64,000 bases of DNA from Escherichia coli (GTDB taxonomy: Bacteria; Pseudomonadota; Gammaproteobacteria; Enterobacterales; Enterobacteriaceae): NCBI RefSeq assembly GCF_050320075.1, contig NZ_CP190018.1; one strand, 5' to 3'. Both the position numbers and the translations under genes were made by a program. Shown here in pieces: positions 23,054 to 25,585 of the stretch. Each line of letters starts with the position of its first letter. The first letter of the stretch is position 1. Below the pieces are notes generated by a model. The model saw only the letters and a list, made by a program, of their open reading frames with translations, did no database searches and was not told where the DNA came from.

Positions 23054-25585
23054 ATGCCAGTCGTACCAACAGTATCCGGACGTCAGGTTGAGAGCCGTGG
23101 AGTTCAGTCAGCAGGCTTGCAGACGTTTTCTCAGCCAGGTATTGGTGATGCTTTTGTTCGGGCAGGGGCAGAGGCAATTGATGTTTTTGGTCAGGCAAAA
23201 CAGCGTGCCAATATTGCCTTGATTCAGGAGGCATCCCTTAAACTCAGTCAGACAGGCAGTGATCTGCTGAATAATCCTGAAACAGGATTGCTTAACCTGA
23301 AAGGGAAAAATGCTATTGGAAAAGGCCATGAGTATACACAGCAGTTTGATGCTCAGATCGAACAACTGGCTATGTCGCTGCCGGATGAACAGGCTCGTAA
23401 TGCTTTCATGCAGCAGGCGCAGCAGCAGCGTATTCAGTTCGCTACGCAGGCCGGGAGGTACGAGATAGGGCAAATAAATGCCTACGAAGAAGGCCAGTTT
23501 CAGGCGACACTGCTGAATAATGGTAAAAATGCCTCAGCATTATATGGCGACAACGCAGCATACATATTGGCTAATACGCAAACTTTCCAGCAAATTGAGG
23601 ATTACGGTATTGCGCATGGCTGGAGCGACGAGCAAATCCAGGCCAAGAAAATCGAGTTTAAAGAAGCAACAGCAAAAGCAACTGCTCAAAATGCTATTGG
23701 AGCAAACTATCTTCAGGTAAGACAGCAAAATGGCGAGTTAAGCGATACTGCTGCTGGATCTCGCCGTGCTGTAGCAGATAGTGGCTCTTCCGATCGTACC
23801 CGCGGTATACGCAACAATAACCCCGGCAATCTTGAATACAGCAAAACTAATCCGTGGGTTGGGCAGACTGGTGATGATGGTCGCTTTGCCAAATTCGAAA
23901 CCCCTGAACACGGTATTCGCGCGCTTGGTCGCAATTTGCTGTCGTATCAGCGTCAGGGTTATGACACCATCAGCGAAATAATTAATCGCTGGGCACCGGC
24001 CAGTGATGATAATAAAACTGATGCTTATATACGGGCAGTATGTGCTCAGCTCGGTGTAACTCCTGACCAGCCGCTTGACGCATCAAATCCTGACACACTG
24101 AAATCTCTGTGCAAAGCAATTATTCATCATGAGCAAGGCAGTCAGCCGTACAGTGATCAGCAATTGGCCGCTGGCGTTAGTGCCGCACTGGGGCTTTCTC
24201 AGCTACCGACAAAAAATAAACGTTATACCGGTGTAGCCTGGTTCGATGCTTTAAGTGAATCAGATCAGGCCAGCGTGTTGCGACAGACGGATGCATTAGC
24301 CAGACAGCAGCAGGCTGAATATAGAACGATGCTCGAAAGCCGGGTTCGCGATGCAACGGCTGCGTATATGCGTGGCGTTGAATTTCCTAACCCGCCTGGT
24401 GAGGGTGAGTTCATTGCTGCTTATGGTGTCAGAGAAGGAAACCTGCGATATACCGAGTTCAGAAATTTGCAGATCGCCGGACAGTATATAGGCTCTTTCC
24501 GCAACATGCCGACAAGCAGCATTACCGCATATGTTGAGCAATTACGCCCGGATACTGGTGAGACAGGGGAGGGGTATGCGTCTCGTGCGGAGTTATTCGA
24601 CCGGGTATCGGCGGCAGCCACGAAGGTAATAACCCAGAGGCAGAATAATCCGTTTAGTGCAGCGGTGGAAATCGGAGCCTATAAGCCGATCACCAGCAAC
24701 AACCCTGACGATATCACTGCCGAGGTGGCTAACCGTTTCTCGTCGCAGGAAAGCTTACGCGCGTTGGGAATTAATGCCCCACTCCTCAACAGTGAAGAGG
24801 CGGCTGCGCTGGCACAGCAGGTGCGCGGCACTCAGAACGTTGACCAGACAATTAAACTGTTGCAGAGCATGGGGGAGAAGCTGCCTGCGCCAGCAATACG
24901 GCAGGTGGCATCTGTAATTGCTCCGAACAGTGCGGCAACAGCCTATTCTGCGCTGCTGCTGGGCACGCCGGATAACCAGTACGACAACACCAGGCCGACG
25001 ATCCCATATAGTCAGTTCATCGGGTATAAGCCGACGATGAACAAGTACGACGTTGCAAAGGTTATTCTTTCCGGCGACCAACTACTGAATCCGACGAAGG
25101 CCATGAAGAATGCGGGCATAACTCCGGTACAGTTGCCGAGCGAAGATAAGATGAAAGACGCTTTCGACGAACAGGTAGGTAATGCATTTGCCCGTAACCC
25201 GCAGTTACGCCAGATCAGTTATAGCCTTTTCAAAGCCGCTTACGCAGGAATAGCTTATCAATCTGGTGATGCCTCTACGGTAAGAACCAGTATGCCTGAT
25301 ACAGACATTGTAGCTGATGCCGTGAAGTATGCTACTGGCGGTATATACAATGGTTTTAATGGCGGCGACGTTGTAATGCCTTTTGGCATGGATAAATCTA
25401 CTTTCAAAGATCGCTATACCACATCTGCGAAACAAGCACTGAAAGATGCCGGACTTAACGTAAATGCAGTGTCAAATTTCACGCCAGTTAATATCGGCAA
25501 TAACCGGTATCGGCTTGTAAATGGTAGCGGACGCTGGGCAACAGATCCCAGAACCAATAAAGCTATTGTCGTGAGGGTTGAATAA
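23054..25585 (+). CDS. large hypothetical protein (843 aa), Gln-rich N-terminus, conserved-looking GIRNNNPGNL block
   Basis: Strong SD (AGGAGG) 7 nt upstream; uninterrupted 2.5-kb ORF; no family recognised. Confidence 0.65.
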   Translation: MPVVPTVSGRQVESRGVQSAGLQTFSQPGIGDAFVRAGAEAIDVFGQAKQRANIALIQEASLKLSQTGSDLLNNPETGLLNLKGKNAIGKGHEYTQQFDAQIEQLAMSLPDEQARNAFMQQAQQQRIQFATQAGRYEIGQINAYEEGQFQATLLNNGKNASALYGDNAAYILANTQTFQQIEDYGIAHGWSDEQIQAKKIEFKEATAKATAQNAIGANYLQVRQQNGELSDTAAGSRRAVADSGSSDRTRGIRNNNPGNLEYSKTNPWVGQTGDDGRFAKFETPEHGIRALGRNLLSYQRQGYDTISEIINRWAPASDDNKTDAYIRAVCAQLGVTPDQPLDASNPDTLKSLCKAIIHHEQGSQPYSDQQLAAGVSAALGLSQLPTKNKRYTGVAWFDALSESDQASVLRQTDALARQQQAEYRTMLESRVRDATAAYMRGVEFPNPPGEGEFIAAYGVREGNLRYTEFRNLQIAGQYIGSFRNMPTSSITAYVEQLRPDTGETGEGYASRAELFDRVSAAATKVITQRQNNPFSAAVEIGAYKPITSNNPDDITAEVANRFSSQESLRALGINAPLLNSEEAAALAQQVRGTQNVDQTIKLLQSMGEKLPAPAIRQVASVIAPNSAATAYSALLLGTPDNQYDNTRPTIPYSQFIGYKPTMNKYDVAKVILSGDQLLNPTKAMKNAGITPVQLPSEDKMKDAFDEQVGNAFARNPQLRQISYSLFKAAYAGIAYQSGDASTVRTSMPDTDIVADAVKYATGGIYNGFNGGDVVMPFGMDKSTFKDRYTTSAKQALKDAGLNVNAVSNFTPVNIGNNRYRLVNGSGRWATDPRTNKAIVVRVE

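Follow-up and report, generated by a model that had tools for sequence, protein, structure and literature searches.

The locus described here raises two questions: what a conserved-looking block that begins with GIRNNNPGNL does inside a large protein, and what kind of genetic element carries its gene. The window is a stretch of 64,000 nucleotides from Escherichia coli, and the features discussed are collected in Table 1. In RefSeq the 843-aa protein holding the block is labelled 'hypothetical protein' because neither Pfam nor NCBIfam has a model for the domain: Pfam-A gives no match to the protein, even at E<=10, and NCBIfam gives none to it or to the other two large proteins of the locus (686 and 918 aa). 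An earlier note, made from the DNA letters, had singled out positions 23740-24200 (residues 229-383) and could not assign them to a family. This is true of Pfam and NCBIfam only; the PDB, the PHROGs and the literature all assign the block.

Table 1. Features of the locus, with positions in the window
Feature	Position	Strand	Basis
Left 16-bp direct repeat TTCCCTTCGCCCGCTC, 3' end of tRNA-Gly-CCC; putative attL	12913..12928	+	k-mer search
Tyrosine integrase of the island	13095..14309	+	NF007246 E 2.5e-98; RefSeq; Pfam Phage_integrase
DUF927 primase-helicase, island replication module	18692..20818	+	
P1-type pac-like site in chimeric 138-aa ORF	21986..22141	+	P1 pacA/pac similarity
843-aa internal virion/ejection protein gene	23054..25585	+	ORF; phrog_992, VB_ST_E15 homology
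Predicted Enc34-type (PHA02564, PM2 P5-like) peptidoglycan hydrolase domain, residues ~249-385	23798..24208	+	
GIRNNNPGNL signature motif, G251-L260, domain start	23804..23833	+	Alignment of 49 homologues
W313, equivalent of Enc34 Trp79, in RWAP; putative substrate-positioning aromatic	23990..23992	+	HMMER alignment to 7q47
Y325, equivalent of Enc34 Tyr95	24026..24028	+	Alignment; invariant in both alignments
E360, equivalent of the proposed catalytic Glu131 of Enc34, in HHEQG	24131..24133	+	Alignment to 7q47
Second ejection-protein gene, 686 aa, epsilon15 gp16-like, Gly/Ala-rich hydrophobic segments	25585..27645	+	phrog_1145
Central insert (~200 aa, residues ~288-490) of the 686-aa protein, with HEALH (HExxH) motif	26446..27054	+	
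Gene for the third ejection protein (918 aa, RefSeq start), a virion structural protein like epsilon15 gp17	27645..30401	+	
104-aa ORF closing the operon, one hydrophobic segment	30401..30715	+	ORF list, RefSeq
Right copy of the 16-bp direct repeat; putative attR	32061..32076	+	k-mer search

A phmmer search of the 843-aa protein against PDB sequences aligns residues 248-368 with residues 6-140 of the Enc34 endolysin (7q47_A, E 2e-16) and residues 249-403 with a protein named Gp29 (9vvp_L, E 4e-39), similarities that chance would not produce. Partial PHROG matches on residues 244-363 are annotated as 'endolysin' or 'tail injection transglycosylase', and the fold predicted for the block is all-helical and like the lysozyme alpha-lobe, as in 7Q47. 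On sequence and predicted fold, residues ~249-385 are assigned to the Enc34-type peptidoglycan hydrolases (CDD PHA02564; PDB 7Q47). The range marked in the earlier note encloses nearly the whole of this domain, in which the stretch FAKFETPEHGIRALGRNLLSY begins at residue 278 (nt 23885). The same note had taken the block for an enzymatic core rather than a structural repeat, which the Enc34/PHA02564 match in sequence and fold bears out, and had thought it possibly cell-wall-active, which homology to this family makes probable. It is the sole recognisable enzyme domain within the 843-aa protein. The domain would work like the SLT/GH23 family, yet by its sequence is not a member of it: the SLT model PF01464 (E-S, GLMQ and AYNAG motifs) has no match in the protein at Pfam E<=10.

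The catalytic domain of Enc34 is muralytic in turbidity assays with outer-membrane-permeabilised E. coli, P. aeruginosa and H. alvei (PMC8943055). Its Glu131, Trp79 and Tyr95 were proposed as the active site from superposition on GH73 and GH23 enzymes, the catalytic role of the Glu being inferred by those authors, who left it unmutated and obtained no substrate complex (PMC8943055). The equivalent three residues have been highlighted in PM2 P5 (bioRxiv 10.1101/2022.07.18.500477). All three have counterparts in the 843-aa protein according to the alignment with 7q47, whose chain numbering is offset by +1 from that of the paper.

The Asn, Pro and Gly residues that had looked invariant by eye are truly so, or nearly so, across 49 homologues of the domain. 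Within RGIRNNNPGN, positions G, N, G and N are invariant and R, N, N and P are at least 90% conserved; W268, G287, R289 and Y325 do not vary either, and at least 90% of the sequences keep W313 and E360. The GIRNNNPGNL motif is invariant in the full-length homologues as well (n=25), and E360 is conserved in at least 95% of them. Mean identity to the query across these 25 diverse proteins is 0.51 at residues 249-380, against 0.20 at 1-240 and 0.26 at 381-843, and a comparison of the island copy with phiV10 gives a dN/dS of 0.075 for residues 249-380, 0.43 for 1-248 and 0.27 for 381-509. The domain is the best-conserved part of the 843-aa protein and is under strong purifying selection.

These figures bear on the idea that the domain is catalytically inert and only anchors the ejection channel, either by binding peptidoglycan or structurally. 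The family consensus is HENG and the 843-aa protein reads HEQG, the residue after E360 being Q where at least 90% of the domain family members have N; this N361Q change beside the proposed catalytic Glu would fit an inert domain, as would the lack of any substrate complex or mutagenesis for the family. However, Gp29 of 9vvp has T directly after its catalytic-Glu equivalent, so the position tolerates change, and RGIRNNNPGN and all three proposed active-site residues are intact. Together with the low dN/dS in the domain, and with a bona fide SLT catalytic domain as the alternative cassette at the same site, this makes an inert anchor very unlikely. A nucleotide-binding domain, the other option in the earlier note, finds no support and can be regarded as effectively refuted.

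The protein in which the domain is embedded is, as judged from its sequence, a homologue of the internal virion (ejection) proteins gp15 of epsilon15 and gp18 of phiV10. The former has been placed in the injection apparatus (PMC12391199). A PHROG search returned phrog_992 over residues 1-843 (E 1e-289), a protein of Salmonella phage VB_ST_E15 shares 79.5% amino acid identity across 100% of the length, and at least 80% of the protein is covered in 28 phage records. Its N-terminal 240 aa are moderately Gln-rich, as had been noted earlier (13.3% Q against ~6% elsewhere), and no strongly hydrophobic segment is found along it (maximum KD19 1.35). The protein is a mosaic, with a phiV10-like N-terminal part of 509 aa and a BUCT554-like C-terminus; the first 1527 nt of the gene have 85-92% nucleotide identity to phiV10-like phages. 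The whole 843-aa protein is matched by 12,238 cluster representatives (50% identity) at E<=1e-3, and among the matches listed many cover residues ~245-390 only, at varied positions in their own proteins. Similarly, some 800 of the 826 matching phage records do so over residues ~249-368 only.

The gene neighborhood agrees with this identity in part. In complete Uetakevirus prophages, homologues with 77-81% identity lie directly 3' of a PF24072 T7_gp14 gene, and throughout Uetakevirus prophages and phages the homologues stand between a T7_gp14-family gene and genes for proteins of 521/636 and 918/921 aa. The gp16- and gp17-like downstream partners (686 and 918 aa) are present next to the island copy, and the upstream T7_gp14-family and 154-aa genes of the phage ejection operons are absent. 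Epsilon15 gp15 and phiV10 gp18, described as internal core or 'head' proteins of Uetakeviruses, are full-length homologues with the same downstream partners but, unlike them, the copy in the window sits on a 19-kb integrative island without capsid or tail genes.

The domain is an exchangeable cassette. A Uetakevirus prophage protein carries a Pfam SLT domain (PF01464, residues 233-339, E 5.6e-17) where the 843-aa protein has the Enc34-type domain, and the N-terminal ~140 aa of this SLT-bearing sibling are nearly identical to those of the 843-aa protein (5 substitutions by BLASTP), a clean swap at the same position; some of the sibling prophages have the SLT transglycosylase there. In T7, the N-terminus of gp16 holds the transglycosylase, and hydrolase domains are known to swap between gp15- and gp16-like proteins (PMC8954989). 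The N-terminal SLT (GH23) of T7 gp16 and the lysozyme domain of K1E/K1-5 gp35 have the same proposed job, that of a wall-cutting module on a podovirus ejection protein, and these modules can be dispensed with or exchanged between gp15- and gp16-like carriers. The T7 SLT belongs to another sequence family than the Enc34-type domain, and the Enc34 and SLT-type folds are distantly related, with a permuted helix order (PMC8943055).

The same domain is found in several other settings. In the T7-like Kayfunavirus it belongs to a gp16 homologue of 1295 aa annotated as 'internal virion protein with endolysin domain', with 54-62% identity to the domain by tblastn; there it lies at the extreme N-terminus and the remaining carrier is unrelated to the 843-aa protein. 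The Gp29 of PDB 9vvp chain L, also of 1295 aa and with the domain in the same position, probably comes from a T7-like phage, given this equal length and position. A literature search for 9vvp returned one unrelated paper and no publication of the structure; gp29 of ΦXacm4-11 was considered as this protein and rejected, since the ΦXacm4-11 preprint describes its gp29 as the adaptor. Among the closest known systems are Enc34 ORF39 (PDB 7Q47; PHA02564) and M4Lys of Salmonella phage BSPM4. ORF39 of the Hafnia phage Enc34, a protein of 26 kDa from a lysis cassette, ends in a two-helix membrane domain, whereas here the domain is internal to a virion-protein homologue without a membrane segment. Structural protein P5 of the corticovirus PM2 and its Vinavirales homologues carry the domain as a stand-alone lysin (stand-alone 'structural protein P5' homologues of ~140 aa are abundant), and Tae5-Nt, a type VI secretion effector from Stenotrophomonas rhizophila, carries it as an antibacterial module. 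Delivery differs in both, PM2 being a membrane-containing tailless phage and Tae5-Nt depending on a T6SS, for which there is no context here.

Taking these lines together, the 843-aa protein is very probably an epsilon15-gp15-like ejection protein with an embedded Enc34-type wall-cutting domain that would cut peptidoglycan locally at DNA ejection. The protein would be packaged within a Uetakevirus-type podovirus head and, upon infection, ejected into the periplasm by way of the portal-tail channel. There, the domain would make local cuts in the glycan strands of the wall, E360 serving as general acid and the pair W313 and Y325 positioning the sugar; the bond cleaved could be of the lytic transglycosylase, muramidase or glucosaminidase type. 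The other ejection proteins (686 and 918 aa), along with a T7-gp14-family protein supplied by a helper, would then build the DNA conduit across the envelope. We infer the activity of the island copy, its presence in virions and its action at ejection rather than lysis. Capsid, portal, tail and T7_gp14-family genes are all missing from the island, and entry of the 843-aa protein into virions would depend on a putative helper phage. The block had also been suggested as the catalytic centre of a cargo system, which stands insofar as it is the only enzyme domain recognised in this protein; the 'system', however, amounts to three podovirus ejection proteins, to which the domain is an accessory for cutting the wall that can be swapped.

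In principle, the domain could instead lyse the host from inside when the lytic cycle ends, as Enc34 ORF39 does. The founding member and many homologues (in chi-like phages, SSU5 and 9g) are annotated or have been shown to be endolysins, and the island has no other recognisable lysin. However, the domain here is internal to a full-length homologue of a virion protein family, the 843-aa protein has no transmembrane or signal segment, and phages with such a homologue have their own cassette with holins and a separate GH19 endolysin. None of the marks of a canonical lysis cassette is found at the 843-aa gene, be it neighbouring holin or spanin genes or a small soluble, SAR or TMD architecture, and an endolysin role is considered highly improbable.

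The partner genes add further features. Both ends of the 686-aa protein show ~80% identity to a protein of 521 aa from phage BUCT554, and its residues 129-150 form a hydrophobic segment. The HExxH insert of the 686-aa protein is found in island copies only, among the middle proteins compared, and stands in for ~35 aa in BUCT554 and for an unrelated stretch of ~150 aa in a Klebsiella prophage. Against Pfam the insert gives nothing beyond a meaningless FapA_N match (E=1), tblastn finds no match in phages or plasmids, and there is a weak match to phrog_10089, 'DarB-like antirestriction' (E 8e-4). The 918-aa protein matches phrog_684, 'virion structural protein', over its full length (E 6e-294), and Uetakevirus prophages have syntenic genes for matching proteins of 918-921 aa. 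Neither this nor the 686-aa protein has a significant match among PDB sequences. A homologue search with the 104-aa ORF found no match; it was considered as the gene that follows gp17 and rejected, having no similarity to the Salmonella prophage gene. An island ORF of 68 aa was likewise rejected as a Uetakevirus late-operon leader, since it does not resemble the gene of equal length that precedes the portal gene in the phage.

The element carrying these genes is bounded by the putative attL and attR, some 19.1 kb apart, the former within the tRNA-Gly-CCC at 12857-12928. A 24-nt search allowing up to 3 mismatches found no attR, and the 16-bp repeat came from the k-mer search; in other genomes, core genes resume shortly after the 104-aa gene. 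Before the DUF927 gene lie AlpA, AntA, BRO-N, Icd-like and DUF4222 genes, and after it come genes for SSB and ProQ/FinO. No homologue of sid, psu, cpm, rpp or terS was recognised on the island, and none of seven island proteins matched a PADLOC defence model. An integrase, an AlpA-type regulator, a primase-replicase, a tRNA with direct repeats and the lack of a full virion gene set are all features of phage satellites, and the island may be one (PICI or P4-like).

A more specific and rather doubtful proposal is that the island is an undescribed kind of satellite that supplies its own DNA-delivery proteins, including the wall-cutter and the gp16-like protein with the HExxH insert. It draws support from the intact trio, tightly coupled to the integrase-AlpA-DUF927 backbone, and from the recent exchange with phiV10-like phages over the first 1527 nt, at 85-99% nucleotide identity. 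In such a satellite, the trio would be loaded into the capsids of a helper Uetakevirus; alternatively, the three proteins could be dominant-negative 'poison' subunits that sabotage Uetakevirus progeny. The literature searched holds nothing relevant on satellites of Uetakeviruses or on satellites carrying ejection proteins. A second Uetakevirus-type match occurs in 16 of 36 island-bearing complete genomes and in ~7% of other genomes, and only three of these second matches were confirmed to be prophage structural regions. With all 16 counted as prophages the co-occurrence has a Fisher p of 9e-10; on the three verified it is not significant, and it is only suggestive.

The opposite view, that the 843-aa gene no longer has a function and is what remains of a Uetakevirus prophage that decayed and recombined into an integrative island unrelated to it, would account for the missing capsid, portal, tail and T7_gp14 genes. 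It also fits the adjacent perC, which is frameshifted, the neighbouring 138-aa ORF, in which fragments of P1 pacA and ant are fused, and the unrelated cargo, such as an autotransporter, held in the same slot of related islands. Decay is harder to reconcile with the 843-, 686- and 918-aa ORFs being all intact, with a domain under purifying selection, and with an identical 843-aa protein in 549 collection blocks, the island architecture being the same in all eight places listed. The whole trio is kept at 96.8% identity or more in 36 complete E. coli genomes, and replication backbone and trio occur in near-equal numbers of genomes (44 and 36-48). A relic is considered unlikely.

A wall-cutting domain in an ejection protein is ordinary for short-tailed phages, and it is the placement on a chromosomal island without capsid or tail genes that is unusual. 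The value of the finding lies in annotation: Pfam and NCBIfam both lack a model for this very large domain family, and its carriers, the 843-aa protein included, go under the names 'hypothetical' or 'head protein'. Its identification here pinpoints the probable wall-cutting component of the epsilon15-type ejection machinery and documents a clean exchange for an SLT cassette. If the proposal of satellite-supplied ejection proteins were true, mobile islands would carry DNA-delivery proteins and exchange them with helper phages, which bears on satellite spread and on host-range evolution at the DNA-entry step.

Under that same proposal, the P1-type pac-like site could allow packaging by a P1-like pacase too. 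The ORF that contains it joins an N-terminal fragment of PacA to a P1 Ant-like fragment. A Uetakevirus-type site was considered and rejected, the ORF having no real similarity to phiV10 TerS; TGATCA does not cluster in the phiV10 terminase region. The pac-like segment is matched by P1-like phages only, with 83-85% identity to the P1 pacA/pac region and a mean of 86% over the whole 211-nt alignment. Its central region is largely conserved over the P1-annotated IHF and cleavage sites, and four of the seven TGATCA/G hexamers are kept.

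The conserved block of the 843-aa protein (about residues 249-385) is a member of the Enc34/PHA02564 group of peptidoglycan hydrolase domains, a known kind, and its carrier likewise belongs to a known family, the gp15-like proteins of Uetakeviruses. Neither Pfam-A nor NCBIfam holds any match to the protein, which explains both its RefSeq label, 'hypothetical protein', and the inability of the earlier note to assign a family from the sequence alone. Such an assignment is given by PHROGs and by a sequence search of the PDB. The PDB search pairs residues 249-403 with chain L of 9vvp ('Gp29', 1295 aa; E 4e-39) and residues 248-368 with 7Q47, the endolysin catalytic domain of phage Enc34 (E 2e-16). 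In PHROGs, the whole length belongs to phrog_992 ('head protein', E 1e-289), and residues ~244-363 additionally match families labelled 'endolysin' and 'tail injection transglycosylase'. The Enc34 domain (CDD PHA02564) lyses Escherichia coli, Pseudomonas aeruginosa and Hafnia alvei once their outer membrane is permeabilised, and superposition on GH73 and GH23 enzymes led to the proposal of Glu131 as its catalytic residue and of Trp79 and Tyr95 as substrate-positioning residues (PMC8943055). In a HMMER alignment, where the chain numbers of 7Q47 are shifted by one relative to those of PMC8943055, the three residues line up with E360, W313 and Y325 of the 843-aa protein.

The block had been described accurately, since the ORF, the quoted strings and the coordinates were all found (23740-24200 corresponds to residues 229-383), as was the Gln-rich N-terminus, with a moderate enrichment of 13.3% Gln in the first 240 residues versus ~6% elsewhere. 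Of the two functions suggested for it, kinship to Enc34 speaks for a probable cell-wall-active enzyme, and the nucleotide-binding reading was not borne out.

Coordinates of the features discussed (in the window unless another locus is named)
Feature	Position	Strand	Remarks
16-bp repeat, tRNA-Gly-CCC 3' end	12913-12928 and 32061-32076		bounds the ~19.1-kb island
P1 pac-like segment	21986-22141		inside ORF 21969-22385; 83-85% identity to the P1 pac site in pacA
138-aa ORF, C-terminal half	22155-22349
PerC-family gene	22394-22619		just upstream of the trio
843-aa ORF	23054-25585	+
GIRNNNPGNL	nt 23804		residues 251-260
FAKFETPEHGIRALGRNLLSY	nt 23885		residues 278-298
Insert with HEALH (HExxH)	26446-27054		~200 aa; residues ~288-490 of the 686-aa protein
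Second element	~32077-45500		GC 36-45% (low)
Recombinase-family gene	33789-34346	-	second element
Distant HK97-type 'major capsid protein'	40939-41967		second element; phrog_29, E 3e-11
613-aa tape-measure-like protein	42331-44172		second element
Tyrosine integrase	44280-45455	-	second element; IS1 next
Very AT-rich stretch	46000-54000		GC 31-35%; several minus-strand ORFs
Core Trp/Tyr permease gene	54734-55963
Ejection-protein gene, ETEC4067	L012 9001-11622		Uetakevirus prophage
Related backbone, ETEC1731	L020 9542-19993		tRNA-Pro

The poor conservation allowed for in the earlier note was found neither in homologue alignments nor in dN/dS. Among 49 domain homologues, G, N, G and N of the RGIRNNNPGN motif, W268, G287, R289 and Y325 are invariant, and R, N, N and P of the motif, like W313 and E360, are kept in at least 90%. 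The sole deviation in the block is Q361, which is N in most of the family and T in 9vvp. The 25 diverse full-length-type homologues compared share a mean identity of 0.51 with the query in residues 249-380, as opposed to 0.20 ahead of this stretch and 0.26 behind it. When the island copy is compared with phiV10, a single pair with dS close to saturation, dN/dS is 0.075 in the domain versus 0.43 and 0.27 in the flanks.

The domain is much more widespread than its carrier. By tblastn, 826 of 50,697 phage records match the 843-aa protein; at least 80% of it is covered in 28, all Uetakeviruses, and the remainder match residues ~249-368 only. The latter include T7-like gp16 proteins, endolysins of chi-like, SSU5 and 9g phages, PM2-like phages, Microviridae, one tectivirus and one tape-measure protein. 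In an all-against-representatives search with the whole 843-aa protein as query, 12,238 clusters match at E<=1e-3; among the matches listed, the domain occupies many positions in proteins of up to 1739 aa. Stand-alone forms of ~140 aa, labelled 'structural protein P5', are common. The relationship between PM2 P5 and 7Q47 is already in the literature (bioRxiv 10.1101/2022.07.18.500477); the fold has also been reported for a type VI secretion effector. The block is thus a known wall-lytic module, widely shuffled among proteins.

The carrier is a homologue of epsilon15 gp15 and phiV10 gp18. In Klebsiella, Salmonella and Citrobacter, homologues with 77-81% identity lie inside complete Uetakevirus prophages, where a PF24072 T7_gp14-family gene directly precedes them and genes for 521/636-aa and 918/921-aa proteins follow. 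Uetakeviruses with the homologue also have a separate holin and GH19 endolysin cassette, which rules out the domain as the endolysin of those phages. In a Uetakevirus prophage of E. coli ETEC4067, the homologous 873-aa protein is near-identical over its first ~140 residues (5 substitutions by BLASTP), but a Pfam SLT transglycosylase (residues 233-339) replaces the Enc34-type domain. The two copies differ by a clean swap of lysin cassettes at a single position. In T7-like Kayfunaviruses, the domain is found at the N-terminus of a 1295-aa gp16 homologue, the position of the lytic transglycosylase of T7 gp16, on which genome entry across highly cross-linked walls depends (PMC8954989); the equal length of 9vvp Gp29 suggests that it is such a homologue. 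Hydrolase domains are known to shift between gp15-like and gp16-like carriers (PMC8954989). Gly/Ala-rich hydrophobic stretches are present in the 686-aa partner, and the 843-aa protein lacks any hydrophobic segment. From the swap and the T7 gp16 position, the best-supported role would be local wall cutting by a virion-borne module, accompanying the building of the DNA channel by the ejection proteins; for the island copy we infer the activity, bond specificity and virion location. The earlier proposal of a catalytic centre of the cargo system stands as to enzymatic nature but not as to centrality, the block being an accessory module.

The ~19.1-kb island carrying the domain in this E. coli chromosome is not a prophage. 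Its gene order opens with an integrase, a 265-aa ORF and an AlpA-type regulator, followed by the antirepressor-like AntA and BRO-N genes. Next come Icd-like and DUF4222 genes, the DUF927 primase-helicase, SSB and ProQ/FinO, then a chimeric 138-aa ORF, perC and a 68-aa ORF, and finally the trio of 843-, 686- and 918-aa ejection-protein genes with a 104-aa ORF. Genes for capsid, portal, terminase, tail and T7_gp14 are absent. The perC gene is frameshifted according to the annotation of the identical RefSeq genome. The identical 843-aa protein occurs in 549 indexed blocks of the assembly collection, with the same architecture at 8 of the 8 places listed. The trio (at least 96.8% identity) is present in 36 of 5426 complete E. 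coli genomes, and the replication backbone in a similar number, 44. The related backbone of ETEC1731 (integrase, HTH, ash, Icd-like, DUF4222, DUF927, SSB, ProQ, PerC) holds an autotransporter in the place of the trio, which marks this place as a variable cargo slot.

The trio could also be the remnant of a decayed phage. This is less likely, given that its ORFs are intact, conserved across many genomes and under purifying selection. The island fits a helper-dependent satellite with its own ejection proteins, a reading still unproven, which draws on the trio without capsid, terminase or tail genes and on four further observations. First, over its initial 1527 nt the gene of the 843-aa protein shares 85-92% identity with phiV10-like phages and 99% with a sequence of E. 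coli strain F11, and the rest is ~75% identical to phage BUCT554, values that indicate recent exchange with Uetakeviruses. Second, the trio finds another matching locus in 16 of the 36 genomes with the island (for example NZ_CP172127.1, NZ_CP172217.1 and NZ_CM163382.1), and in three this was verified to be a phiV10-like tail and core region, complete and at a different place in the chromosome; against a background of ~7% Uetakevirus-type matches, the enrichment is strong (odds ratio 10.5, p 9e-10) if all 16 are prophages, and is non-significant on the three verified cases alone. Third, the pac-like segment mostly keeps the central IHF and cleavage region and 4 of 7 TGATCA/G hexamers; the C-terminal half of the 138-aa ORF is ~81% identical to ant of the P1-like phage RCS47, and no similarity was found between this ORF and the phiV10 small terminase. 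Fourth, the 686-aa protein resembles the 521-aa protein of BUCT554 at both ends, and its HEALH insert is missing from the compared phage homologues. By tblastn, the insert has no homologue in phages or plasmids; it weakly matches a DarB-like antirestriction PHROG (E 8e-4), and in a Klebsiella prophage the corresponding site of the middle ejection protein is filled by another insert. The block by itself is of modest interest, and the island holding it merits separate study.

A second element, of low GC content, lies in tandem with the island, and the AT-rich stretch beyond it separates the core permease gene from both.
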